From a virus (Duplodnaviria > Heunggongvirae > Uroviricota > Caudoviricetes): a stretch of DNA of 37,921 bases. Position 1 is the stretch's first letter, and every line of letters begins with the position of its first letter. A program made the position numbers and the translations under genes. The notes under the pieces are model-generated. The model was not told the DNA's origin. It saw nothing but the letters and a program-made list of their open reading frames with translations, and searched no databases. This document shows positions 1-26,045 of this stretch, piece by piece. The stretch lies in the IMG/VR virus record IMGVR_UViG_2734482770_000007. One strand, written 5' to 3'.

Positions 1-1053
1 TTACGGGGTAATGCCAACCGCTGCCGCCACTTTGTCGCCACTTGGCAGCGTTGCCAGAGGATTGAAACGGAGCGCCGTTTCTAGATGATCCGGTGCCAGA
101 TGTGCGTAACGCATAGTCATTTTTATATCGTGGTGTCCGAGAATTTTTTGTAAGGCCAGAATGTTTCCACCCGACATCATGAAGTGCGCCGCAAACGTAT
201 GGCGCAGAACGTGTGTGAGTTGACCGCGAGGGAGCACGATAGACGTTTTTTCCATCACGGATAAAAATTGAAAATAGCAGTCTGTGAAGAAATTGAACCC
301 ATCAAGCGCCATGATCTCTTCGTAAAGCTCTTTACTGATAGGGATGCTTCTGTTTTTCTTCCCCTTCGTTCTGACAAAGGTAATTCGGTATTTGGTCACC
401 TGTGAGCGGGTAAGATTTACGGCTTCACGCCAGCGTGCGCCTGTGCTTAAGCATATCTTAACTACCAGTGCCAGAATTGGGTCCTGACGTTTGCAATCAG
501 CCAGCAATTCAACAATCTGCTCATGGGTAAGCCATGCCATCTCTTTTTCTGCGATGGTGAATTTTCGCATGTTCTCCAGTGGGTTCGGATACGACCATTC
601 GCCCAGACGGGATAGTTCGCTAAAAACACTACTTAGATAGCTTTGCTCCAGGTTAATGGTGACCGGGCTTGCTCCTTTCTTCCATTTCTCGCTGAAGTAG
701 ATCTCGCCTGTCAGGCGTTTATCTCGATAGTGGGCAAACATTTTAGAGGTGAGATCGGTTGCAAGAGGATTGCCCAGAGCGTCAACCATCAACAGCAATT
801 TGTCATAGACATGCTGCCCAGCTGTCAGAGATTTACCATGTAGTTTGAACCATAGCTCAACCACGTCTTTCAGTGTTCGACGATCCACTGATTCACCCAG
901 CCAGGGCTTTGCTTCGGTTTCTTCCATCGTGTGGCGCTCAAAAGCCAGTGCTTCGCCTTTGGTGGCGAATTGTTTACGCACACGACGCCCACTTCGTCCG
1001 GCGGGGTAACATTCGCAAAGCCATTTCCCTGTGGTTAGTTTTCGTACTGCCAT
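1..1053 (-). CDS. int: Tyrosine integrase, P2/186 family
   Basis: 350-aa ORF ending at window edge; C-terminal catalytic region with R..HxxR..Y signature (LRHTFAAHF, HHDIKMTMRYAHL); sits next to a cI-type repressor as in P2/186 prophages. Confidence 0.9.
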   Translation of the reverse strand: MAVRKLTTGKWLCECYPAGRSGRRVRKQFATKGEALAFERHTMEETEAKPWLGESVDRRTLKDVVELWFKLHGKSLTAGQHVYDKLLLMVDALGNPLATDLTSKMFAHYRDKRLTGEIYFSEKWKKGASPVTINLEQSYLSSVFSELSRLGEWSYPNPLENMRKFTIAEKEMAWLTHEQIVELLADCKRQDPILALVVKICLSTGARWREAVNLTRSQVTKYRITFVRTKGKKNRSIPISKELYEEIMALDGFNFFTDCYFQFLSVMEKTSIVLPRGQLTHVLRHTFAAHFMMSGGNILALQKILGHHDIKMTMRYAHLAPDHLETALRFNPLATLPSGDKVAAAVGITP

Positions 1054-1135: not shown

Positions 1136-2812
1136 CTAAGCAACATGTAGTTCATCGTTGGCGGAAGTGGCTGCTTTGCGCTCCTGCTCAATAGCTAGAG
1201 ACTCTCTATATTCTTTCGCCTCTGCAAACATTGTCCAGTGGGCGTTGATGTTCATGTCTTCAATAACTGATTTGATTTCTTTTAAATTTACGTTAAAAAA
1301 CTCTTTTCGTGAGTTAATTTTATTGACCTGCTTTTCGTTGAAAACTTTATGCAGATGGTTTTCTAATGATGGTGCATCATCACTATAAATCATCGCATGA
1401 ACATCGAACGAAAAAGGAACACTAGCATCTCCGAGTTCACGAACACGATCAAGTGGTTCAAGGCGGCGTGTCATTCCAATTTTATATACATCTTCGCCAA
1501 ATGAACCAATATTACTAATGATATAGACGTGGCCTGATCTGGTTTGTTGAGCCATAGAAATAGCTCGTTGATTTTTAGCTTCAGCTTCTTCATATTTTAA
1601 CTGTAGTTCAGCTATTTTTTGCTCTAAAGCTAAGCGTTGTTCTTCATTTGCAAGCATAAGTTCTTTCGTTGCTTTATTTATAGCTTGCTGAATAGCTTTT
1701 TCTTCTTTTTCAGCTTCTTTTATCGCTTTTTCATATTCTCTACGAGCTCTTTCCTCTTCACGAAGCTGTTCTTTAATCCTTCTTTGCTCTTCTTTTTCTT
1801 CGAGCATAATTTCATTAACTGCTACACCCCATTTTAGCTCGTTGAGTCTTGCCTGAAGATAGATGTCACTTATTTTTGCGGACCTAAAGGCAGAGCCATT
1901 GTAATTTACTAGTTGAAATGCATCTTTTATTTCTTGGGAAAGTTTTCCAAAATTGTTGTGTTTGACTTTTGATAAAATACTGTCAACTCTTCCATTGAAG
2001 GCATCCAAAACAAAGTTTATGGCAGTATTACGCCTGTTTTGCTCAACATAATCACACGAAGCAGCTTTATTAGTTTTTATTAATGATTTGGTTAACTCTC
2101 TGGCTTTTTGTAATTCCTTGCCTGCATCTGTAAATTCATAATTTTCTGCCAGCTCATCAAGTACACTACGGTTAGGGATGATCCATTCATCACCATAACC
2201 TTCAATTTTATTTTTCATTGATTTTGCAACTGCTTCATATTTTTCTGCAAACTCTTTAGCTTCATATGCTGAACCAGCAATCTCCTTTGCTCTTTCTTCT
2301 GCATCAGAAATAATTTTTACTGCATTGTCATTAGCATTTGAGATTAGCTCATTTGCTTTATTATTAGCATTATCAAGACGTTCTTTGGCTTTCAGGCGTG
2401 CATCGCGAGCGTCTTTGGTGATTGCTATAGCTTCGCTATTAGCGTTGCTTATTGTCATCTGAGCTTGATAATTTGCTTCGTTTACTGTTTTAGCCGCCTT
2501 AATTTGGGCTTCATCTATTTTTTGCTTGGCTATTGAGTCCGCATTTTTTATCTTATTCTCTGCATCCATTACTGCGCTGTGCAATTCTTCGTATTGCCAC
2601 AATGGTGCTGCTCGCCCTTCAAGCTCTGATAATTCTCGTACGGTCTGTGCTAGTTTTTCTTGATTTTCAATCAGTTGGTTAGAAAGGGCTATGTTGTTAG
2701 CTGTCAGGTTATCTATAGCCGCTTTGTGTTTTTTACTTTGTTTAAATAATATTACAGCTAGAACAGGGGCGAGAAATGCTAATAAGAGTATAACGATGGC
2801 AAATGAATTCAT
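1136..2812 (-). CDS. Cargo (moron) protein: N-terminal transmembrane helix, long coiled coil, C-terminal T5orf172/GIY-YIG-like domain (DUF4041-type architecture)
   Basis: 558-aa ORF; N-terminus FAIVILLLAFLAPVLAVILF is hydrophobic; central region is Ala/Lys/Glu-rich heptad-like; C-terminus has GHVYIISN...YKIGMT resembling GIY-YIG/T5orf172 motifs. Visibly AT-rich versus backbone. Inserted between cI and int where 186/P2 have no gene. Confidence 0.6.
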   Translation of the reverse strand: MNSFAIVILLLAFLAPVLAVILFKQSKKHKAAIDNLTANNIALSNQLIENQEKLAQTVRELSELEGRAAPLWQYEELHSAVMDAENKIKNADSIAKQKIDEAQIKAAKTVNEANYQAQMTISNANSEAIAITKDARDARLKAKERLDNANNKANELISNANDNAVKIISDAEERAKEIAGSAYEAKEFAEKYEAVAKSMKNKIEGYGDEWIIPNRSVLDELAENYEFTDAGKELQKARELTKSLIKTNKAASCDYVEQNRRNTAINFVLDAFNGRVDSILSKVKHNNFGKLSQEIKDAFQLVNYNGSAFRSAKISDIYLQARLNELKWGVAVNEIMLEEKEEQRRIKEQLREEERARREYEKAIKEAEKEEKAIQQAINKATKELMLANEEQRLALEQKIAELQLKYEEAEAKNQRAISMAQQTRSGHVYIISNIGSFGEDVYKIGMTRRLEPLDRVRELGDASVPFSFDVHAMIYSDDAPSLENHLHKVFNEKQVNKINSRKEFFNVNLKEIKSVIEDMNINAHWTMFAEAKEYRESLAIEQERKAATSANDELHVA

Positions 2813-2832: not shown

Positions 2833-3429
2833 TTAATTCGAGACTATTGTACTTCTTATACAAGCAACCACTTCAATATCAGAAAATGCACATTCAAAGC
2901 TATTCTCTGCTGTTGTAATTTTAATCATTCCTTTAGGAAGCCTTGTGATTTTTCGAATGGAATAGGTTCCGTCGATATTGATTAACCAGTTTCCATCAAG
3001 TACTTCAGAAAATTTTTGATCACAAATGTATGTGACGAGTCCATCCTGAACAACAATTGGTGATGAAAGGTTTGCAGGAAGAAATGATGAATCGAAGACA
3101 TATGAACCGTCTTCAATCATTTTGCCTGCGGCAAGGCGAAACTTAACAAGCTCTTCTGTAGCTGCTGTCAGCGAGCTTTGCTTAAGGCCTTGTCCGGTAG
3201 TTAACCATTTGAGGGAGGTTCCTGTTTCAAGAGCACATTGGATTATCCAGTCAGCAGGAAATGTATCCCGCAAATACCTGTTCGCTAGTGTGCTTTTTGA
3301 TACTTCCAAGTGATCAGCTAAAGCCTGTCGTGTCGTAAAGCCATAGGCTTCGACTAATCGCTCAATCGCAGCCTTACCACCTTTATTGGGATTTATTTTG
3401 ATCTCACTTGGGTACTTTGATGTTGACAT
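2833..3429 (-). CDS. cI: CI-type immunity repressor (186 CI-like, two-domain)
   Basis: 198-aa ORF, same strand and directly upstream of int operon, divergent from apl/cII; size matches 186 CI (about 192 aa) not the small P2 C; N-terminal HTH-like region. Confidence 0.8.
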   Translation of the reverse strand: MSTSKYPSEIKINPNKGGKAAIERLVEAYGFTTRQALADHLEVSKSTLANRYLRDTFPADWIIQCALETGTSLKWLTTGQGLKQSSLTAATEELVKFRLAAGKMIEDGSYVFDSSFLPANLSSPIVVQDGLVTYICDQKFSEVLDGNWLINIDGTYSIRKITRLPKGMIKITTAENSFECAFSDIEVVACIRSTIVSN

Positions 3430-5579: not shown

Positions 5580-6433
5580 GCACCATCCTGAAATGGGCGG
5601 GAAATAAAACCGCCATTATGCCAGAACTGAAAAAATACCTTCCTGCTGGCCCGCGACTGGTTGAACCTTTCGCGGGTTCCTGTGCTGTGATGATGGAAAC
5701 GGATTATCCCAGCTATCTGGTTGCGGATATTAATCCTGATTTAATCAACCTCTATAAAAAGGTTGCCGCTGATTGTGAATCGTTTATATCTCGCGCCAGA
5801 GTTTTATTTGAGATCGCAAACAGGGAGGTGGCTTATTACAACATAAGGCAGGAGTTTAACTGCTCAACTGAAATTACTGATTTCATGAAAGCGGTATATT
5901 TCCTGTATCTCAATCGTCACGGTTACCGTGGTTTATGTCGCTATAACAAGAGCGGGCATTTCAACATTCCCTACGGTAATTATAAAAATCCGTATTTCCC
6001 TGAAAAAGAACTTCGCACATTTGCAGAAAAAGCCCAGCGAGCAACGTTTATCTGCGCCAGCTTTGATGAAACGCTGGCGATGTTGAAGGCGGGAGATGTG
6101 GTGTATTGCGATCCGCCATATGACGGTACGTTTTCCGGCTATCACACTGATGGTTTCACTGAAGATGACCAGTATCACCTGGCATCCGTTCTTGAACATC
6201 GGTCATCAGAAGGACATCCGGTCATTGTTTCTAACAGTGACACATCCCTGATCCGTTCGCTGTATCGCAATTTTACTCACCACTATATCAAGGTAAAACG
6301 CAGCATCGGTGTGGCAGCTGGCGAGGGTAAATCAGCAACAGAAATCATTGCTGTTTCCGGGCCGCGCTGCTGGATGGGATTTGATTATTCGCGTGGCGTG
6401 GATAGTTCTGCCGTGTACGGAGTACGTGCATGA
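5576..6433 (+). CDS. dam: DNA adenine methyltransferase (Dam family, orphan)
   Basis: N-terminus ILKWAGNK...LVEPFAGS (AdoMet motif I) and catalytic DPPY (CDPPYDG) read directly; GGAGGT upstream of ATG 5576; no restriction endonuclease gene adjacent. Confidence 0.85.
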
Positions 6434-8844
6434 GTCATGCCGATATGAACAACTGCTGCGGCTTTAACGAGGCTGCCGCAGCATTCTCATGGAACAGCCC
6501 GAAAAAGGCCATTAACCCTTATCTGGACCCGGCGGAAGTTGCGCCGGTTTCTACGCTTTCAAACCTGATCACTCTGTACGCTGCCGATAACGAGCAGGAA
6601 CAGTTGCGCCGCGAGGCACTGAGTGATCAGGTCTGGGAGCGTTATTTCTTTAATGAATCACGTGATCCTGTCCAGCGCGAAATGGAGCAGGATAAGCTCA
6701 TTAGCCGGGCAAAGCTGGCGCATGAGCAGCAGCGTTTTAATTCAGACATGGTCATTCTGGCGGACGTCAACGCCCAGCCTTCCCATATCAGCAAGCCGCT
6801 GATGCAACGTATTGAATACTTCAGCAGCCTGGGCAGGCCAAAGGCTTATTCCCGCTATTTACGTGAGACGATTAAGCCATGTCTGGAACGACTGGAGCAT
6901 GTACGCGACAGTCAGCTATCTGCATCTTTTCGCTTTATGGCAAGCCATGAAGGGCTGGACGGCCTGCTGATCCTGCCTGAAATGAGTCAGGATCAGGTGA
7001 AACGCCTGTCCACCTTGGTAGCTGCGCATATGAGTATGTGCCTTGATGCAGCTTGTGGTGATTTGTATGCCACCGATGACGTTAAGCCAGAAGAAATCCG
7101 CAAGACATGGGAAAAGGTGGCAGCGGAAACCCTGCGTCTGGATGTCATCCCACCTGCGTTTGAGCAACTCCGTCGGAAAAGAAACCGCCGTAAACCCGTG
7201 CCGTATGAACTCATTCCGGGTTCGCTGGCGCGTATGTTGTGCGCCGACTGGTGGTATCGGAAATTATGGAAGATGCGTTGCGAATGGCGGGAAGAGCAGT
7301 TGCGCGCTGTTTGCCTGGTCAGCAAAAAAGCATCTCCTTATGTCAGCTATGAAGCCGTGATGCATAAACGTGAGCAGCGCCGTAAGTCGCTGGAGTTTTT
7401 CCGTTCTCATGAACTGGTGAACGAAGACGGCGACACGCTGGACATGGAGGATGTGGTAAACGCCAGCAGCAGCAACCCTGCGCATCGCCGCAATGAGATG
7501 ATGGCCTGTGTTAAAGGTCTGGAGCTTATCGCGGAAATGCGCGGTGACTGCGCCGTTTTCTACACTATCACCTGTCCGTCGCGTTTCCATTCCACGCTAA
7601 ATAACGGCAGACCAAACCCGACCTGGACAAACGCGACGGTAAGACAAAGCAGCGATTATCTGGTCGGCATGTTTGCTGCATTTCGTAAGGCGATGCACAA
7701 AGCCGGGTTGCGCTGGTATGGCGTGCGGGTGGCTGAGCCGCATCATGATGGCACAGTTCACTGGCACCTGTTGTGTTTCATGCGCAAAAAAGACCGCCGT
7801 GCCATCACTGCATTACTGCGTAAGTTTGCCATCCGTGAAGACCGCGAGGAGCTGGGCAATAACACTGGGCCGCGCTTTAAGTCTGAGTTGATTAACCCGC
7901 GCAAAGGAACGCCGACAAGCTACATCGCGAAATATATCAGTAAGAACATTGACGGTCGTGGTCTGGCTGGCGAGATCAGCAAGGAAACGGGTAAATCTCT
8001 GCGTGATAACGCTGAATACGTGAATGCCTGGGCGTCTCTGCATCGTGTTCAGCAATTCCGCTTCTTTGGTATTCCGGGGCGTCAGGCTTACCGTGAACTT
8101 CGCTTGCTGGCTGGTCAGGCGGCAAGGCAACAGGGTGACAAAAAAGCAGGTGCGCCGGTACTGGATAACCCGCGTCTTGATGCCATTCTGGCTGCTGCTG
8201 ATGCTGGTTGTTTTGCCACCTACATCATGAAGCAGGGCGGCGTACTGGTTCCCCGTAAATATCACCTCATCAGAACCGCTTATGAAATCAACGAAGAGCC
8301 GACCGCCTATGGCGATCACGGCATTCGTATTTATGGCATCTGGTCACCCATTGCAGAGGGCAAGATCTGCACTCATGCAGTGAAGTGGAAAATGGTTCGT
8401 AAAGCCGTTGACGTTCAGGAGGCGGCAGCCGACCAGGGCGCTTGCGCCCCTTGGACTCGTGGCAATAACTGTCCCCTTGCTGAAAATTTGTACCAACAAG
8501 GGAAAGACAAATCAGCTGATGGGGATACCAGAACGGATATCACCCGCATGGATGACAAGGAATTGCACGATTACCTGCACAGTATGAACAAAAAAGAGCG
8601 TCGGGAACTGGCTGCAAGGTTACGCCTGGTGAAACCGAAACGGCGTAGAGACTACAAACAGCGAATTACAGATCATCAGCGACAGCAGCTCGTCTATGAA
8701 CTGAAGTCCAGAGGATTTGATGGCAGCGAGAAAGAGGTCGATTTACTCCTTCGCGGCGGCAGCATTCCGTCAGGAGCAGGCCTGCGTATTTTCTATCGGA
8801 ACCAGCGTTTGCAGGAAGATGATAAGTGGCGGAACCTGTATTAA
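6430..8844 (+). CDS. A: Rolling-circle replication initiator (P2/186 gene A family)
   Basis: 804-aa ORF with metal-binding motif [11 protein letters not shown] (HUH-type) and Tyr-containing YIAKYISKN region; start overlaps dam stop (ATGA). Confidence 0.9.
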
Positions 8845-8997: not shown

Positions 8998-9186
8998 ATG
9001 CAGGACTATTTTTTGGAGTCTTTGAAGCTCCAGCGCATTGATTTTTTTCTTAAGCTTGTAGCGGCTAGTGAGTGTAGTGATGAAGAGAAGGGGCTGGCCC
9101 TGCAGTGGGTTTCTGAACTGACAGATGAACTCATGGCAAAAATCAGAACCCACGAATACAACCGCTCAATGGATGTCATCAGCTGA
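8998..9186 (+). CDS. Small SOS-controlled protein, possibly Tum antirepressor N-terminal module
   Basis: 62-aa ORF from ATG 8998 with AGGAGG Shine-Dalgarno; directly downstream of LexA box; position matches 186 tum. Confidence 0.45.
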   Translation: MQDYFLESLKLQRIDFFLKLVAASECSDEEKGLALQWVSELTDELMAKIRTHEYNRSMDVIS

Positions 9187-9196
9187 GGTGACTTTT

Positions 9197-9430
9197 ATGC
9201 GCATTGAAATAATGATCGATAAAGAGCAGAAGATTAGCCAGTCTACCCTGGACGCCCTTGAATCCGAGCTTTACCGCAATCTGCGCCCCCTGTATCCCAA
9301 AACGGTAATTCGCATTCGCAAAGGTAGCTCTAACGGTGTGGAACTGACCGGACTGCAACTGGACGAAGAAAGGAAGCAAGTGATGAAAATTATGCAGAAG
9401 GTGTGGGAAGACGACAGCTGGCTGCATTAA
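9197..9430 (+). CDS. DinI-like protein
   Basis: 77-aa product MRIEIMIDK...DALESEL...WEDDSWLH aligns by eye with E. coli DinI (MRIEVTIAK...DALAGEL...WESADDW); GAGGTG upstream of ATG 9197. Confidence 0.75.
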   Translation: MRIEIMIDKEQKISQSTLDALESELYRNLRPLYPKTVIRIRKGSSNGVELTGLQLDEERKQVMKIMQKVWEDDSWLH

Positions 9431-9460
9431 GAAACGTTGCCCCCAAGAGGATTCATTCTG

Positions 9461-9631
9461 ATGGGGGACTATTTTGGGCAACGAGTGAAACGAGGCGTTA
9501 GGTGGACGGCCATTTTGATAAGTGATCGTCCGCTTTTTGTTCTGAGTTCAAGCGATGGATTTAACACACTGGTTGAAGCAGAAGTATCTAAGTTCAATTT
9601 ATATTATTTGAAGGGCACTGGTCTGATGTAG
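9461..9631 (+). CDS. Hypothetical small protein in hotspot
   Basis: 56-aa ORF from ATG 9461 with AAGAGGA Shine-Dalgarno; track lists a longer version from 9437 (non-ATG start). Confidence 0.3.
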   Translation: MGDYFGQRVKRGVRWTAILISDRPLFVLSSSDGFNTLVEAEVSKFNLYYLKGTGLM

Positions 9632-9717
9632 TACGATTTTTGCCGGAGATGGCATGTTCTATATTGATCTCATCCATATAATGATTGGTATTATTAGCTT
9701 AGTTTAAAGAGGATTGA

Positions 9718-11295
9718 ATGGATATCAACTATGTTGTTTCAAAAATGGGGTTCGTAGATGATCTTATTAATGCAGGTTCATTTGATTCTGCCTATAAAAA
9801 TGTAAAGGATATTCTTAACGGTATCGATGAGATAAATACAATCAAAGAAAATAGAATAATTATATTATCTAATTTGGCCGGAAATCTTATTGATATCGGA
9901 AGTTTTAGTAATGTAAAAAATATAGCGGAGGAAGGCTTAAATATCTTTATAAACAATAAAAATGAATTTCTGACTATAATGAAAGAATCCTTATATTACT
10001 ATAACTTGGCAAATGGAATGAGCGCAGTTCTTGATTTTAATCCTAATGACAATGCAGATATTGATAGTTTCATTAAGCTGAATGATGTAAAAAATAATTA
10101 CTGGAAAGCGTTTAAACTTTCACAAGAAGATGGATGGGTGCCCCCTGATTTAATAGTTAATCTAGCTAATGTATTAAAAAAACAATATCGTATATCTGAA
10201 TCAATGGATTATTATGAACAAGCAATATCTATTGATAACTCAATTCCTCAGGCGTGGGTAAACAGATCTGAGGCATTAGAATTGCTTAATGAATTATCTA
10301 CAACATATACATATAAAATGATTAAAGAAGTTATTCGAGGTTATGAGTGTGCAATAAAGTCAGGGAAATGTTTTCCTTCATGGAAGGTTGCTCTTCAAAG
10401 AAAAATAAAGTACAACGAAAGTATATTGAGTGAATCATGTGTATATGGCATAGAGGATATAAGTACAGATGAAAGGCTCACGCAGGAGGAGTATGATACT
10501 TTATCAAACTACCAGAGGTTTTGTATAGATAATAATCTAATGTTGTCTGATCATTCGCTATATTGCAATTGTTATGCGTCATCTAAAGATAATATAACTA
10601 TTGCTACCACCGAGGAAGGTGTGTTTGGTGATTTTATAGTGCCAATGGAAATGGTGTTAAATAGACTTAAAGCTGAGTATTCCTTAGCACGAAAAATGTT
10701 TTTTGAATATAAGGTTGATAGTGAGTTTTTTGATGAGGATTCGGAGGTATGTTATTCTGAATTGTATAATGGAGAAATATTGTATGAAAATGTTGAGAAG
10801 TTAAGGGTTGCATTTAGAGCTTGCTTTGGTATCTTGGATAAAATAGCAGTTGCTCTGTGTCAATTATTTGATTTAAAACCAGATAGAGGACATATATACT
10901 TTCATAACTTCTGGCGGATTAGTGATGAAAAAAGAAAGCTTAAAATAAACAAAATAAATAATAAAGGATTGCTGGGTTTGTTTAGTATTGCTATGGATTT
11001 GAATGATAAAAATGGTGAGCTTGCTTTTTTTAAAGAATGGAGGAATGATTTAGAACATAAACTGTTAGTTATTCACGAGAAAGACATGTTAGTTGATTTA
11101 TATAATTCTTATGGGTTTTTTGATGAGGTGAGGTTTATTGAGAAAGAAAAGTTTGAGAAACAGCTCTTACAACTCATGAAAATTGTGAGATCAGCCGTTA
11201 TTCTTTTTGTGTTTACCATACGTATAGAGGGGAAAAAAAGTATTCCTAAAGATATGTTGACCATTAAAAATACCATCGAGAGAAAAGTATTGTAG
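9718..11295 (+). CDS. Cargo protein of unknown function; TPR-like N-terminal region, C-terminal HEPN-like Rx4H motif
   Basis: 525-aa ORF, strongly AT-rich by eye; AAGAGGA-like SD (AAAGAGGATTGAATG); helical repeat-like segment YYEQAISIDNSIPQAWVNRSEALELL; C-terminal EWRNDLEHK fits HEPN R-x4-H; followed by hairpin tcatcg-agc-cgatga plus T-run. Confidence 0.7.
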   Translation: MDINYVVSKMGFVDDLINAGSFDSAYKNVKDILNGIDEINTIKENRIIILSNLAGNLIDIGSFSNVKNIAEEGLNIFINNKNEFLTIMKESLYYYNLANGMSAVLDFNPNDNADIDSFIKLNDVKNNYWKAFKLSQEDGWVPPDLIVNLANVLKKQYRISESMDYYEQAISIDNSIPQAWVNRSEALELLNELSTTYTYKMIKEVIRGYECAIKSGKCFPSWKVALQRKIKYNESILSESCVYGIEDISTDERLTQEEYDTLSNYQRFCIDNNLMLSDHSLYCNCYASSKDNITIATTEEGVFGDFIVPMEMVLNRLKAEYSLARKMFFEYKVDSEFFDEDSEVCYSELYNGEILYENVEKLRVAFRACFGILDKIAVALCQLFDLKPDRGHIYFHNFWRISDEKRKLKINKINNKGLLGLFSIAMDLNDKNGELAFFKEWRNDLEHKLLVIHEKDMLVDLYNSYGFFDEVRFIEKEKFEKQLLQLMKIVRSAVILFVFTIRIEGKKSIPKDMLTIKNTIERKVL

Positions 11296-11617
11296 TATAT
11301 TTTCATCGAGCGATGAAACGGTCTGTTTTTCTTTATAGTTTTGTCATAAAAAAGAGATTTCCTGCTTAAAATTTGGCTATTACAGAGCAACTATGTATGT
11401 TCCTCGCTCACAGTAGAGCTTCATCTTTGTAAGTCTGTATGTTTCGTTTTTCAAGTGGTCATTCAGATACGGACTTTCACTTCTCTTAGACAGTGCATGA
11501 CTATGCTGCATGAAATCGCATGATCGTTTAAGGATCGTTTTTGCTAAGGCTCGCCAGAACTAGCGGGCTTTTACGTAGAACATGCAGGTGCATGAAAACC
11601 ACTACATAAAGCGGGCA

Positions 11618-11636
11618 GGCGTGGCGGGGATACGAG
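11618..11636 (+). other. Candidate cos (cohesive end) core
   Basis: GGCGTGGCGGGGATACGAG followed by GCGCGC resembles my recollection of the P2 19-nt cohesive end GGCGAGGCGGGGAAAGCAC; located in a 546-bp noncoding region adjacent to the portal-terminase operon, oriented as in P2. Confidence 0.3.
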
Positions 11637-11841
11637 CGCGCACTCTGGGGTAAAATGGTCAAAATCCACCGCAATTTACTGGCTCGGGAACGTAGTTAGT
11701 TTTGTAGGTATAAACGGCTCTCACGTTAGATAGGCATGCAGGATGTGTTAAATCGTTGTGATGAAGTTAACGGTGACTGAGACAGTTTAGGTCTAAGATA
11801 TAACTTCTGGGTTAGTTAAAAATTGGAATAGTAAGACATTT

Positions 11842-12138
11842 ATGAAAACTACTTATAGCTATGATTTTCAATATATGCGCAAAGGTCAGGATCGCCCTGA
11901 TGATGATGGAGAGGTTGTAGGGTGTAATTCAGAAGACAACTCGCTTTTGATGCTTCCAAATGTGGGAGACTACGTAACAATTACGAATAAGGGTGGGCGT
12001 GCTCAATTTGATGGGCGGGTGAAAACAAGGCTTTTCAATTACCTACGCATTGCTGATGGTCATGTTCATTGCTCCATTTGCATTGTAGTTGAGGAAGTTG
12101 ATATGGACTCCGTATGGGGGGCACTAATTAAAGAATAA
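11842..12138 (+). CDS. Hypothetical protein between cos and portal gene
   Basis: 98-aa ORF, no recognisable motifs; P2 has no gene at this position; followed by hairpin terminator. Confidence 0.5.
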   Translation: MKTTYSYDFQYMRKGQDRPDDDGEVVGCNSEDNSLLMLPNVGDYVTITNKGGRAQFDGRVKTRLFNYLRIADGHVHCSICIVVEEVDMDSVWGALIKE

Positions 12139-12144
12139 TAGAAT

Positions 12145-12160
12145 GCCTGCAAATGCAGGC
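12145..12160. terminator. Bidirectional hairpin between convergent 98-aa ORF and portal gene
   Basis: gcctgc-aaat-gcaggc perfect stem; T-rich on plus side (gctttaattt). Confidence 0.45.
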
Positions 12161-12168
12161 GCTTTAAT

Positions 12169-13209
12169 TTACTCAGAAATATCTAAGTTGTAAGATTCAA
12201 AGCAAATCACTTTTTCACCTAGCCAGTTGTTCAGCTCTTGCAGCCGCTTTTGCAGTGGCATCAGTTCATTGCGGACAAACACTCGACTAGCCTTCTCCAC
12301 ATCCCCAAACCCCCCGACATTATTAGGCATTATCCCCATCATTTGTGGCGGCACACGATGCGCCGCCATCATGTCGTCCCGGCTCACGTTCTTGATATTC
12401 AGGAACTCATCCTTCGCCGCCACTTCTGACAACGGGATAATCTGAAGCCCGTCCTTTTTACCGTTAGGCGAGTACATAAACAGGTTACGGAAGTTACCAG
12501 GACCTTTGGCGCTTTTCATCGCATTGCGGAGGTTGTTCACATCCTCCTGGTTCTGCGCAGCATCGGTCATGTACATGATGAAGCCTGCATGACTGCCGTT
12601 AATGTAATACTTGCGGCGGAACAGCGTGGCGGACTCGTTGAGCAGAGCTGACGGAATGGCAGAAAGATAACCGGGCAGGCCGTAGATCTCCTGGTTAATG
12701 TCCGGTTCCATTAGATGAAAAATGCTGCCTTTCGTGAACTGATACGGCTGGGTTGTCATACCGTATTGCACAAACCAGTAGGTATCCAGGTCTAACCCGC
12801 GTCGGGTGTATTTTGCCAGTGCAGGCTCAAGGGCGATAACTTCACCGAAGCGGTTCGTGCGTTTCTCCAGGTAGGCGTTACCAAAAACCAGATAGTCCTG
12901 CACAAAACGCGAAAAAGCCTGCTGGCTGAGCAGCGGGTGAGGGATGTAGGTGCTGGTCAGAATGTTGCACTTCACTGCAATCGGTGAGCTGTGATGCACG
13001 GCGGCGCGGAAGGTTCGCGCCAGTCCGTCGAAACTCACAGGCGGCTCATACCAACGATCCATCTGTACGCATTCCACATAGTCCAGCAGTTCGCGGCGGT
13101 CCAGAACAGGAACGGGATCACCGAAGCTGAATGCTTCGGCTGAAGTCTGGCTTTTATGCTGGATCTGTTTCGTCGACGCAGCGCGGTTCTTCTTACTCTT
13201 TCCCATCAA
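12169..13209 (-). CDS. Q: Portal protein (P2 gpQ family)
   Basis: 346 aa (P2 Q about 344 aa); leftward, upstream partner of terminase in a Q-P operon divergent from O-N-M-L. Confidence 0.9.
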   Translation of the reverse strand: MMGKSKKNRAASTKQIQHKSQTSAEAFSFGDPVPVLDRRELLDYVECVQMDRWYEPPVSFDGLARTFRAAVHHSSPIAVKCNILTSTYIPHPLLSQQAFSRFVQDYLVFGNAYLEKRTNRFGEVIALEPALAKYTRRGLDLDTYWFVQYGMTTQPYQFTKGSIFHLMEPDINQEIYGLPGYLSAIPSALLNESATLFRRKYYINGSHAGFIMYMTDAAQNQEDVNNLRNAMKSAKGPGNFRNLFMYSPNGKKDGLQIIPLSEVAAKDEFLNIKNVSRDDMMAAHRVPPQMMGIMPNNVGGFGDVEKASRVFVRNELMPLQKRLQELNNWLGEKVICFESYNLDISE

Positions 13210-20483: not shown

Positions 20484-20922
20484 ACTGCAGAAAGTGGACG
20501 ACTGGCTGAGTGCCTTGCTGGCGAATCTGGAGCCAGCCGCAAGAAGCCGCATGATGCGCCAGCTGGCGCAGGAACTGCGCCGGATACAGCAGCAGAACAT
20601 CAGGATGCAACGCAATCCAGATGGCAGTAGTTATGAACCGCGACGGGTAACAGCACGCAGTAAAAAGGGGCGCATCAAACGTCAGATGTTTGCAAAGCTG
20701 CGAACCACAAAATACCTGAAAACTGCCGCCAGCGCCGATTCTGCCAGCGTGCAGTTTGAAGGCAAGGTACAGCGCATTGCCCGTGTTCACCATTACGGCT
20801 TGCGTGATCGCGTCAGCCGTAAGGGGCCACAGATACGTTATGCTAAACGTAGGTTACTTGGAATTTATGATACTGATTTTGATATTATAGAAGAGATAAT
20901 CATAAATTTTTTGATTCGTTAG
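20476..20922 (+). CDS. S: Tail completion protein (P2 gpS family)
   Basis: 148 aa; synteny and size; 3' end overlaps convergent cargo gene. Confidence 0.75.
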   Translation: MAELQKVDDWLSALLANLEPAARSRMMRQLAQELRRIQQQNIRMQRNPDGSSYEPRRVTARSKKGRIKRQMFAKLRTTKYLKTAASADSASVQFEGKVQRIARVHHYGLRDRVSRKGPQIRYAKRRLLGIYDTDFDIIEEIIINFLIR

Positions 20923-22081
20923 ATTCATTAATTTTCTTAAAGTATGAGTCTATTTTTTCAATTAATAAATTGATGCTTTTTATAAATTCTTTTGTTTCTT
21001 TCTCTGTTGGTTCATGTGATGTATGAGCTATTTTGTCACGTAATTCTTTCCTGTTTTTATTTGCATGTTGCCACTCAAGTGGCGCAATTTCGGGTACAGA
21101 GATGTTAAAGAGTTGTTTGAATAGTTTTTTACATCTATCATCGAACTTCCAGTTTTTATTTAATGTTTCTTTTGTCTGGCATTCATTGATACCATTGCGA
21201 TGAAAGGCATTAATAATTTTTCTGAGAATATAGCTTTCAAGGCCTGCTGATGCTTCAATTACGGCTGATCTAAATGCACCTTTATGAACAAGATTGTCTG
21301 CTCTAATCAATAATAGTTCAGGATGTTCATTGAATTCATTTGACATTAAACGTTTTTTGAAATTATCAATGAGACTTTCATCGTGTTTATACCAGCTTTC
21401 TCTCATTAATGGGGTGATTACTCCAACTAAAGGAATTGCACTTATCTTAATACCATCGCAATAATGCTCTTGTAACACTCCGTTGGTAAATCCTGAGCCA
21501 ACTTGATAAAGAGATATCTCGTCTGCAAATTGATCTTTAAAGGCAACTCTATACTGTTTTATAAAGTGGTTTATTATTCCGATACATTCCTCTGATCTTT
21601 TAGGTGGAAATATCTCTCTAGCAGTTTTTATTTTTCTCTCTAACTCTATTTTTTTATCTATATCTTGCTGGCTCATTTTGGATAGGAGCATCTCAGCATC
21701 TTCCACAGATGGGAAGTTATCTTCTTTCCTTATTTGGTTTCTTATAGAGTTGATTAGTTCTTCATGTGATATTTCTAAAAGGTCAAAACATTCCCAATAG
21801 TTGGCGAGAGAAATAATAGTCCGGCATTTCATTATCCCTCTTTCATTTGTGTGATGTGGTAGTAGTTGTTCTCTGGTACCGATTAATAGGGTTTGAGGGA
21901 ATAAGCTTGCATCTTTAAATAGTGCATAGTAATCGTTGTGAACTGTTAAGCGTAAATGGTTATTTTCATATAGAAAATCATAATCACCATCTGGAATATT
22001 GAGGACATAAGGCAACTCGACCAAGTAACGTGCAGCAAAGATCATTTCAGTCATCTCCATATGAGAATTCAATTGTGCCAA
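20900..22081 (-). CDS. Cargo protein of unknown function in the S-V (orf30-equivalent) locus; C-terminal HEPN-like Rx4H motif
   Basis: 393-aa ORF, strongly AT-rich by eye, antisense to flanking late genes; C-terminal KELRDKIAHTSHEP fits R-x4-H; no other recognisable motif. Confidence 0.7.
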   Translation of the reverse strand: MAQLNSHMEMTEMIFAARYLVELPYVLNIPDGDYDFLYENNHLRLTVHNDYYALFKDASLFPQTLLIGTREQLLPHHTNERGIMKCRTIISLANYWECFDLLEISHEELINSIRNQIRKEDNFPSVEDAEMLLSKMSQQDIDKKIELERKIKTAREIFPPKRSEECIGIINHFIKQYRVAFKDQFADEISLYQVGSGFTNGVLQEHYCDGIKISAIPLVGVITPLMRESWYKHDESLIDNFKKRLMSNEFNEHPELLLIRADNLVHKGAFRSAVIEASAGLESYILRKIINAFHRNGINECQTKETLNKNWKFDDRCKKLFKQLFNISVPEIAPLEWQHANKNRKELRDKIAHTSHEPTEKETKEFIKSINLLIEKIDSYFKKINESNESKNL

Positions 22082-24564: not shown

Positions 24565-26045
24565 GCACAAAATTTTATACCCTGCTGACGGATATTGGCG
24601 CGGCGAAACTTGCCAGCGCCGCCGCGCTCGGTGTGCCGCTAAAAATTACCCATATGGCGGTGGGCGATGGCGGCGGAGCATTGCCGACGCCGGACGCAAA
24701 GCAGACGGCACTGGTAAATGAGAAACGCCGGGCTGCGCTGAATATGCTCTATATCGACCCGCAGAACAGCAGCCAGATTATTGCTGAACAGGTGATCCCT
24801 GAAAATGAGGGTGGTTGGTGGATACGTGAAGTGGGTCTGTTTGATGAGTCCGGGGCATTGATTGCCGTAGGCAACTGCCCGGAAAGCTATAAGCCGCAAC
24901 TGGCTGAAGGCAGCGGGCGCACCCAGACCGTGCGCATGGTGCTGATTACCAGCAGCACGGACAATATCACCCTGAAAATCGACCCTGCCGTCGTGCTGGC
25001 AACCCGCAAGTATGTGGATGACAAGGTACTGGAGCTGAAGGTGTTCGTGGATGATAAGATGGCAAAACATCTTGCCGCACCGGACCCGCATTCACAGTAT
25101 GCATCTAAAGAAAGCCCGACATTGACCGGAACACCCAAAGCGCCAACGCCAGCGGAGGGGAATAACACCACGCAGATTGCGACCACCGCGTTTGTTCAGG
25201 CCGCTATTACTGCTCTGATTAACGGTGCGCCAGCCACGCTGGACACACTGAAAGAAATTGCCGCAGCCATTAACAATGACCCGAAATTCAGTACCACCAT
25301 TAACAATGCGCTGGCACTAAAAGCACCGCTGTCGAGTCCGGCACTCACCGGAACGCCAACAGCACCTACTGCGGCACAGTCGGTCAACAATACACAGATT
25401 GCCACTACAGCTTTTGTGAAATCAGCGATTGCAGCAATGGTGGGTTCTGCACCTGCGGCACTGGATACACTGAACGAACTGGCGGCGGCGCTGGGGAATG
25501 ACCCGAACTTTGCCACGACAATGCTTAATGCACTGGCAGGTAAACAACCGCTGGACAATACGCTGACTAATTTGAGTGGAAAGGATGTAGCTGGTCTTCT
25601 CACATACCTTCAATTGGGAGAAGCGGCAAAACGGGATGTCGGAACCGGTAATAATCAACTCCCGGACATGTCCGCATTTGGTATGTCGCGAAACGGACAA
25701 ACTACCTGGGATATTCTCCCAAATGGTATGATTCGACAGGCTGGCACTGTGACACTGACACCAGTTGGTAACTTCAACTCGCAGGTGCTTGGTGGGGTGA
25801 CGTACTACACCCATTACTACAGGGTTAATTTCCCCAGACAATTCCCAAATGCACAAATAGCAACGCTGGCAACACTAGCGAGTTACAGCTATTCGACCCA
25901 GGCAACAATGGCCGGAAAATCACTGGCAACGCATCGCGATACTGATTCTGGCACTGACGTATCAAGAACGCGATTCACTGTGGCGTATACGACACCCAAT
26001 CTCGGCGAAACACCGACACTGCATTTTGAAGCAATAGGATACTAA
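24561..26045 (+). CDS. H: Tail fibre protein (P2 gpH family), C-terminal domain within invertible segment
   Basis: 494 aa; internal tandem fibre repeats; hix-like crossover site at codons 346-354. Confidence 0.85.
   Translation: MSTKFYTLLTDIGAAKLASAAALGVPLKITHMAVGDGGGALPTPDAKQTALVNEKRRAALNMLYIDPQNSSQIIAEQVIPENEGGWWIREVGLFDESGALIAVGNCPESYKPQLAEGSGRTQTVRMVLITSSTDNITLKIDPAVVLATRKYVDDKVLELKVFVDDKMAKHLAAPDPHSQYASKESPTLTGTPKAPTPAEGNNTTQIATTAFVQAAITALINGAPATLDTLKEIAAAINNDPKFSTTINNALALKAPLSSPALTGTPTAPTAAQSVNNTQIATTAFVKSAIAAMVGSAPAALDTLNELAAALGNDPNFATTMLNALAGKQPLDNTLTNLSGKDVAGLLTYLQLGEAAKRDVGTGNNQLPDMSAFGMSRNGQTTWDILPNGMIRQAGTVTLTPVGNFNSQVLGGVTYYTHYYRVNFPRQFPNAQIATLATLASYSYSTQATMAGKSLATHRDTDSGTDVSRTRFTVAYTTPNLGETPTLHFEAIGY
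25113..25556 (+). repeat. Tandem in-frame repeat (two copies of about 74 codons) within tail fibre gene
   Basis: Protein segments SPTLTGTPKAP...NNTTQIATTAFVQAAI...LDTLKEIAAAINNDPKF and SPALTGTPTAP...NNTQIATTAFVKSAI...LDTLNELAAALGNDPNF are clearly paralogous. Confidence 0.55.
25597..25622. promoter_or_regulatory. hix/gix-like 26-bp invertase crossover site (left), core TT
   Basis: TTCTCACATACC TT CAATTGGGAGAA; imperfect dyad resembling Hin hixR; inverted partner at 27131-27156 (19 of 26 identical in inverted orientation). Confidence 0.55.

Follow-up and report, generated by a model that had tools for sequence, protein, structure and literature searches.

A TPR-HEPN protein of the LA2681 family as single-gene cargo of the P2 defence hotspot and a candidate abortive-infection RNase

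What does the AT-rich gene between replication gene A and the cos region of a P2-like prophage encode, and could its product protect the lysogen against other phages? P2 itself carries old and tin at this position. We examined the question in IMG/VR virus record IMGVR_UViG_2734482770_000007, a P2-like prophage sequence of 37,921 nucleotides to which we refer as the window. The gene in question is an open reading frame (ORF) at 9718..11295 (+) with an ATG start, encoding 525 aa, and its product is identical to WP_000354145. The analysis presented here identifies a protein with a TPR-like N-terminal half and a C-terminal HEPN domain. Judging from the sequence, a stand-alone sensor-effector abortive-infection RNase is its best explanation, one that we put forward with restrained confidence.

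Profile searches assign the C-terminal part of the protein to a named HEPN family. The Pfam model HEPN_LA2681 (PF18733) matches residues 309-504 across profile positions 9-204 of 204, with E=1.8e-38 and 132.4 bits against a gathering cut-off of 27, and it matches every member of an alignment that we built from 43 of the 182 relatives found. Scanning the protein against NCBIfam and PHROGs gave no significant match. The protein contains FKEWRNDLEHKLL, which holds R442..H447, an Rx4H motif that the original prediction had read as the HEPN RNase signature. Shuffling the protein produces a bare Rx4H in 17% of cases, so that the motif says little by itself, and it is invariance within the family that gives it meaning: R442, N443, E446 and H447 are unchanged in all 43 homologs, down to 36% identity. 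The same alignment shows invariant residues in helix 2 (E360, R363 and D374) and at E311, R316, K318, E320 and R325.

The conservation of the motif bears on whether the domain is catalytic. The HEPN domain could instead be an inactive binding or scaffold module, with any phenotype arising from sequestration by the TPR part, as some HEPN families are non-catalytic ligand-binding domains (Anantharaman et al. 2013, Biol Direct 8:15). However, such families have lost Rx4-6H, whereas here the R, N, E and H are invariant and Table 1 of the same paper, which also records the fusion or operon association of the LA2681 family with TPR, lists the family as 'Rx4-6H conserved: Yes'. We consider an inactive domain very improbable, and the conserved residues suggest that the protein is probably an active RNase.

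The predicted structure leads to the same assignment. By definition a HEPN domain is a bundle of four helices running up and down, in which helices 2 and 3 are separated by an insert, helix 3 ends in Rx4-6H with N, D or H as the polar residue after the R, and helix 2 holds an acidic residue (Anantharaman et al. 2013). The full-length AlphaFold (AF2) model, with a predicted local distance difference test score (pLDDT) of 86.7 and a predicted template modelling score (pTM) of 0.89, is helical save for one beta-hairpin, and its C-terminal part consists of helix 1 (307-334), helix 2 (357-384), a helical insert (385-435), helix 3 (436-447), the beta-hairpin (449-475) and helix 4 (476-507). The bundle of four helices, the placement of the insert and the motif that ends helix 3 agree with the published HEPN topology. 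Because Foldseek with the full-length model gave only TPR solenoids and nothing on the C-terminal domain, residues 255-525 were modelled apart (pLDDT 85.9, pTM 0.88). Foldseek on this second model was not significant (best E=0.39), with HepT, AF0298, YutE and AbiV again high-ranked. Structure prediction thus yielded the expected bundle, while for this C-terminal model the fold search that had been proposed alongside it stayed short of significance. As sequence, motif and topology agree, and the support from fold searching is modest but consistent, we regard the assignment as solid: the protein is very probably a HEPN-fold member of the LA2681 family. The HEPN R-x4-6-H inference of the original prediction, and the profile search that it named as a check, are both borne out by the PF18733 match, the invariant RNxxEH and the modelled topology.

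Helix 4 is also the focus of a different reading, in which the hydrophobic C-terminal helix at residues 483-501 inserts into the membrane, so that the protein would be an anchored effector rather than a soluble RNase dimer. A '1 TM' comment on this protein in Table S5B of Rousset et al. 2022 (Cell Host Microbe 30:740) and a Kyte-Doolittle 19-residue mean of 1.96 for LLQLMKIVRSAVILFVFTI point in that direction. The segment nevertheless holds K488 and R491 and lies inside the PF18733 match, its helix carries the family-invariant residues S492, A493, F497 and R502, and both AF2 models bury it in the HEPN bundle as core helix 4, with pLDDT >90. We therefore judge a membrane anchor to be highly improbable and retain the soluble HEPN domain.

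On the strength of the models, the N-terminal half is best described as TPR-like with one canonical repeat. Pfam TPR_10/8/2/1 matches at residues 145-174 are sub-threshold (best 19.3 bits vs 27.5), with TPR models reaching over residues 145-193, and TPR_2 is found at E<0.01 in 19 of the 43 homologs. The family profile matches consensus TPR proteins over positions 127-197, and the top PDB matches of the full-length model in Foldseek are CTPR (consensus TPR), the OGT TPR domain and MamA, at E about 2e-4. These two results uphold the earlier suggestion of TPR-like helical repeats. Mean identity to distant homologs is 32% in the N-terminal domain vs 49.5% in the HEPN domain. An RNPP-type peptide receptor was considered for the N-terminal domain and rejected, with no RNPP_C in a Pfam scan up to E 10 and no RNPP receptor among the top 50 Foldseek matches. 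The linker between the two domains is conserved, with L276, S277, H279, Y282, C283, C285, D291, I295, G304 and F306 invariant. Three of its residues (H279, C283 and C285; window 10552-10572), together with C369 of HEPN helix 2 (10822-10824), are invariant in 43/43 homologs and could, from their conservation, make up a structural metal site; in one homolog Pfam reports a weak zf-H3C2 match (E=0.0068).

The gene had been described as unrecognised and not assignable to any named system, a description overturned by the PF18733 match, the 2013 family table and a published listing of the exact protein and gene arrangement. The window protein belongs to the LA2681 family as described in Anantharaman 2013, with the HMM (hidden Markov model) match, the Rx4H and the TPR fusion all as in that table and nothing structurally different; the family description is computational, that of a predicted RNase. 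Table S5A of Rousset et al. 2022 gives WP_000354145 as HEPN_LA2681 in the P2 hotspot and holds the exact arrangement of the window, namely a hypothetical gene, DinI, HEPN_LA2681 and WP_000859244. In Table S5B the protein stands at rank 100 with 33 occurrences, labelled 'HEPN_LA2681/RNPP_C' and commented 'Likely a RNAse' beside the '1 TM' remark, and the 399 residues printed there are identical to the window protein. Entry no. 100 therefore shares with the window gene its protein, hotspot, four-gene arrangement and RNase reading; it lies outside the set of cloned systems, and its '1 TM' flag is explained by the HEPN core helix in the AF2 model. DefensePredictor (2026) lists a same-named 335-aa E. 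coli protein, which may cluster with the window protein, as a 'Predicted novel defense gene' with a mean log-odds of 9.1; no known defence protein is homologous to that entry, and Table S6 (cloned systems) does not contain the family name. Searching main texts for LA2681, PF18733, WP_000354145 and TPR-HEPN found only the 2013 HEPN paper, the decisive mentions being in supplementary tables. The gene is thus an already named and already catalogued candidate, whose RNase prediction and P2-hotspot location have been public since the 2022 table. We also observed that the protein at rank 126 of Table S5B ('FdhE'), a single-gene P2-hotspot protein, contains KNLRNDIEHYQF with an RNxxEH motif, which suggests further unlabelled HEPN-type cargo in the P2 hotspot.

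Rousset et al. 2022 (PMC9122126) counted 1,650 arrangements over 18,150 loci in the interval between gpA and gpQ, which they define as a hotspot of defence genes. In the window, the conserved genes end with the DinI-like gene ahead of the variable slot; RefSeq gives a 78-aa version of this gene in the syntenic prophage L001. In blastn comparisons with E. coli P2-like prophages that carry other cargo (L012, L013 and L014), homology ends at about 9540-9560 and resumes at about 11398-11441. Within these limits the HEPN gene is the sole gene of the 1.84-kb cargo, with no second credible gene. The 240 bp that follow (11398-11641) are kept among P2-like prophages irrespective of the flanking cargo, and past 11641 homology is lost again until the portal gene. 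Because homology is lost, regained and lost once more, we recognise two slots in the hotspot, and the alignments indicate that the conserved block splits it into two independently exchanging parts. Other strains have a TIR protein, an RNase-A-like/immunity pair or a KAP-type NTPase in slot 1; their slot 2 carries an AIPR protein, an HNH gene, an AAA ATPase or the 98-aa ORF that is also present in the window. This 98-aa ORF, which finds no match in Pfam and PADLOC scans, occurs elsewhere with a different slot-1 gene (L014; a KAP NTPase in strain LR-50), and the HEPN gene is paired with a different slot-2 gene in L001; since each occurs with different partners, the two are independent modules.

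The base composition of the gene sets it apart from the prophage backbone. Its G+C content (GC) is 0.308, with 0.27 at third codon positions (GC3), compared with 0.528 (GC3 0.57) in replication gene A, 0.519 in the portal gene and 0.50 in the whole window. The AT-rich composition noted at the outset is confirmed by these values, and placement in a variable hotspot equivalent to that of old and tin is supported by the published definition of the hotspot (PMC9122126) and by the alternative TIR, RNase-A-like/immunity and KAP NTPase cargo that inspection of other, otherwise homologous P2-like prophages revealed in the same slot. The gene is a horizontally acquired, AT-rich, single-gene cargo of the cos-proximal gpA-gpQ hotspot.

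Exchange of the slot also bears on whether the gene serves the phage itself, as an RNA-processing or regulatory RNase whose TPR part would recognise a small peptide or a host factor and thereby adjust lysogeny, induction or the interaction with P4-type satellites. The gene adjoins a DinI-like gene and the cos region, which is common to P4 satellites (PMC9122126), and its N-terminal part was labelled RNPP_C, a peptide-sensing receptor domain, by Rousset et al. However, the slot is freely exchanged with unrelated genes such as TIR and KAP NTPase genes, so its cargo is not needed for the phage cycle; homologs also lie outside phages, in integrative and conjugative elements (ICEs) and chromosomal islands; and the RNPP_C label finds no counterpart in the Pfam scan (E up to 10) or among the top 50 Foldseek matches described above. 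We hold a role in the phage cycle to be quite improbable, and treat the gene as accessory cargo in what follows.

Among the local signals reported at first, the terminator alone proved weak. The strong Shine-Dalgarno sequence that had been reported was recovered as AAGAGGA. Two -10 elements can be read by eye upstream of it, and a two-hexamer promoter scan did not call these candidates at 9677-9694. The hairpin 3' of the stop codon had been taken for a terminator; support for this is weak, as its region folds no better than shuffled sequence (z=0.18), its T-run begins about 8 nt past the stem, and a terminator scan of the window made no call at 11302-11317. Two further ORFs were considered as partner genes and set aside: ORF 9437-9631 (TTG start) spans the junction between conserved and variable sequence and has no Pfam match, and the AT-rich ORF 11109-11390 lies antisense and extends over the 3' end of the HEPN gene.

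Relatives of the protein form a family that is modest in size and fixed in architecture. A search of ~5.8 billion proteins found the 182 relatives, nearly all of ~525 aa, at 57-85% identity in Enterobacter, Yersinia, Salmonella, Erwinia, Cronobacter and Pantoea and at ~40% in Pseudomonas, Vibrio, Cellvibrio, Parazoarcus and Polaromonas. With the HEPN domain as query against 1.84 billion cluster representatives (50% identity cluster level), 720 matches were obtained at E<=1e-3 and 78 at E<=1e-30. Almost every full-length match is 500-565 aa long and has the HEPN domain at about 300-525, indicating one fixed TPR+HEPN architecture. Across seven genomic contexts no conserved neighbour gene was found, which, with the single gene in the 1.84-kb cargo, bears out the earlier view of a single-gene module. 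In Vibrio, the homolog lies between Mrr and a Lamassu LmuA/LmuB pair (PADLOC E=1e-194 and 0); in Cellvibrio, it is in an ICE with AbiEii, Fic, a HigBA-like pair and ArdA; the Yersinia context is an integrase/AlpA/primase island with AbiEii; the Pseudomonas homolog adjoins an integrase and a PAAR toxin; and two metagenomic genomes have homologs near reverse transcriptase (RT), SIR2, HsdR and HipBA genes. We also noticed that the Yersinia enterocolitica homolog (83% identical) is followed by a 186-aa gene on the opposite strand at three loci (L009, L010 and L011, 9755-10315 (-)). At L010 such genes flank it on both sides in inverted orientation, the upstream copy at 7110-7670 (+) having no PADLOC match, and the paired inverted genes may be a small mobile unit that carries the HEPN gene.

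The distribution and conservation of the gene have to be set against the view that it is selfish cargo, either an addiction-type toxin or a decaying passenger, that is, a toxic or inert HEPN RNase kept by recombination and hitch-hiking with no anti-phage benefit. Rarity fits that view: the gene is found at the same locus in 11 of 5,426 complete E. coli genomes and accounts for 33 of 18,150 hotspot occurrences (Rousset et al.). So does the lack of a defence phenotype in other HEPN-type hotspot genes (pFR83 and pFR103). Against it, the 1.84-kb cargo contains no antitoxin gene, MNT or other, and none is conserved beside the homologs; the ORF is intact and 99.5-100% conserved in the 11 genomes; the 43-homolog alignment has 62 invariant residues over wide divergence, indicating purifying selection; and defence-gene pseudogenes are reported to be rare in P2 hotspots (bioRxiv 10.64898/2026.02.27.708500). 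Taking both sides together, we think selfish or decaying cargo an unlikely explanation, and return to abortive infection.

HEPN RNases such as RNase L, PrrC, RloC, Cas13, Csm6 and HepT have a composite active site formed by two HEPN domains. Given this composite site and one HEPN domain per chain, the TPR-HEPN protein would have to dimerise. We propose that the lysogen would express it from the gene's own promoter and that it would stay idle, one HEPN domain being half of the composite site and the TPR domain restraining the HEPN domain. On infection by a competing phage, the faster-evolving TPR solenoid would bind a phage-derived protein or peptide, and ligand binding would allow productive HEPN dimerisation or opening. 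The metal-independent RNase would then cut cellular and/or phage RNA (tRNA, rRNA or mRNA), translation would stop and the infection would be aborted. Neither an antitoxin nor an NTPase appears to be involved. The setting of the gene is that of defence, with TIR, RNase-A-like or KAP NTPase genes in slot 1 elsewhere, AIPR or AAA ATPase genes in slot 2, and homologs in mobile and defence islands. We lean towards the conclusion that the protein defends against phage. That it is a genuine stand-alone abortive-infection (Abi) protein, in which a TPR solenoid recognises a phage protein or peptide and switches on the HEPN RNase without NTPase, second messenger or antitoxin, is a possible but tentative proposal. 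The specific TPR-trigger mechanism, argued by analogy, is rather doubtful.

Several observations count against the proposal of a defensive RNase. The helix-2 acidic motif is spaced E-x2-R (E360/R363) vs the typical E-x3-[KR]. PADLOC-DB v2.0.0 gave no match beyond noise (a generic TPR model at E=3.5e-4, Csx1/Csm6 at E=0.074). A tblastn search of 50,697 GenBank phage records gave no match, so that the gene is seen in prophages and islands and not in these deposited phage genomes. Two other single-gene HEPN-type cargoes, pFR103 and pFR83, were inactive against the phage panel of Rousset et al. 2022. Searchable literature yielded no defence, toxicity or RNase activity data for any LA2681-family protein, and dimerisation, trigger, RNA target and autoinhibition are all steps that we infer.

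Comparison with known systems shows which parts of the proposed design have precedents. ApeA, which Gao and colleagues are said to have found in 2020, is reportedly a single-protein HEPN anti-phage system of defence islands and P4 hotspots, and is among the systems cited in PMC9122126. It shares with the window protein the logic of an N-terminal non-catalytic domain and a C-terminal HEPN RNase in one polypeptide, but its N-terminal domain is ApeA_NTD1 rather than TPR, the PADLOC ApeA model finds no match, and the two are separate families. HepT of the HepT/MntA pair (PDB 5yep, 8xdj, 7ae2 and 6m6u) is ~8-11% identical to the window protein. An MNT antitoxin gene is adjacent there, whereas none is present in the cargo at 9561-11397 or conserved in the seven contexts, and the HEPN domain of the window protein follows a 300-aa TPR region in the same chain and, at ~200 aa, includes a helical insert as well as a beta-hairpin. 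The anticodon nucleases PrrC/RloC and DS-11 (CBS-HEPN) also combine a sensor and a HEPN effector in one protein, and DS-11 loses defence when HEPN catalytic residues are mutated (DefensePredictor 2026, PMC13092281); their sensors are an ABC-type ATPase or CBS domains, in contrast to TPR here, and no relationship was detected at the sequence level. Avs/AVAST and other STAND NLR-like proteins have a TPR solenoid as proposed phage sensor, coupled to a nucleic-acid-degrading effector, as proposed here, but the window protein is far smaller at 525 aa and has no STAND or P-loop NTPase domain (Pfam; the model contains solenoid, linker and HEPN only). pFR83 'HEPN-TPR' (P4 hotspot) and pFR103 'Putative HEPN' (P2 hotspot; both in Rousset Table S2B) are likewise single-gene HEPN-type cargo; identity of the window protein with either was rejected, as they are unrelated by BLASTP (E=2.1 and 1.1, respectively) and the domain order of pFR83 is reversed.

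As a discovery the gene adds little, since its protein, family, architecture, location and RNase prediction are already public. Its residual value is as an experimental target that is compact, antitoxin-less and single-gene, with a confident model, clear catalytic residues and a natural expression context. Were phage defence to be demonstrated, the LA2681 family, with 78 clusters at E<=1e-30 and 720 at E<=1e-3, would have its first function. If the proposal is true, the protein would represent a minimal 'repeat sensor plus RNase' immune receptor in a family spread across Proteobacteria and beyond.

Table 1. Positions in the window of the TPR-HEPN gene, its domains and signals, and the surrounding prophage features.
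Feature	Position	Strand	Remarks
Integrase	1-1053	-	
CI repressor	2833-3429	-	
A replication endonuclease	6430-8844		
Small hypothetical gene	between gene A and DinI-like gene		
DinI-like gene	9197..9430	+	Pfam DinI E=1.3e-22 on ORF 9125-9430; left boundary of variable slot
Variable cargo segment, slot 1 of gpA-gpQ hotspot	9561..11397	.	GC 0.310; 1.84 kb
Candidate promoter -10 elements	TATAAT 9677-9682; extended -10 TGgTATTAT 9686-9694	+	putative, read by eye
Shine-Dalgarno AAGAGGA	9707..9713	+	GAGG core 5 nt upstream of ATG; read from sequence
TPR-HEPN gene	9718..11295	+	ORF with translation; protein = WP_000354145
N-terminal all-helical TPR-like solenoid, predicted sensor/regulatory domain	9718..10452	+	aa 1-245; helix pairs, pLDDT ~90 (AF2)
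Single clearly canonical TPR unit	10150..10251	+	aa 145-178
Conserved linker	10453..10635	+	aa 246-306
HEPN domain	10636..11238	+	aa 307-507
Predicted RNase catalytic motif R442-N-D-L-E-H447	11041..11058	+	Rx4H, polar residue after R; end of helix 3
Short AT-rich hairpin 3' of stop codon	11302..11317	+	stem 6-7 bp; weak as terminator
Conserved non-coding block, right boundary of slot 1	11398..11641	.	85-97% identity to L012, L013, L014 (blastn)
cos-like site GGCGTGGCGGGGATACGAG	11618-11636		within conserved block; 14/19 positions match P2 cos
98-aa ORF in slot 2	11842..12138	+	100% identical to WP_000859244; between cos-like site and portal gene
Portal Q	12169-13209	-	
Terminase	beyond portal Q in gene order		

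The remaining observations concern the surroundings of the two slots and other cargo of the prophage. The cos-like site was compared with what we take to be the P2 cos sequence. The same string is present in the cloned P2/P4 sequences of the Rousset et al. 2022 supplement. A strong bidirectional terminator-like hairpin follows the 98-aa ORF at 12144-12161. A second AT-rich cargo gene, at 1136-2812 (-) between the integrase and the CI repressor (558 aa, GC ~0.35), encodes a clear PD-Lambda-1 homolog (PADLOC E=2.4e-120; Pfam DUF4041 + T5orf172/MUG113), so that at least one recognised defence gene is present elsewhere in the prophage, in another slot. The third AT-rich island, at 20900-22081 (-) with GC ~0.34, contains a 393-aa ORF on the strand opposite to the flanking ORFs. 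It has no PADLOC match and a sub-threshold tRNA-synt_1e match (E=1.8e-4), and apparently occupies the slot that in L001 holds a hypothetical gene at 24689-25555 (-), between the virion-morphogenesis and baseplate V genes.

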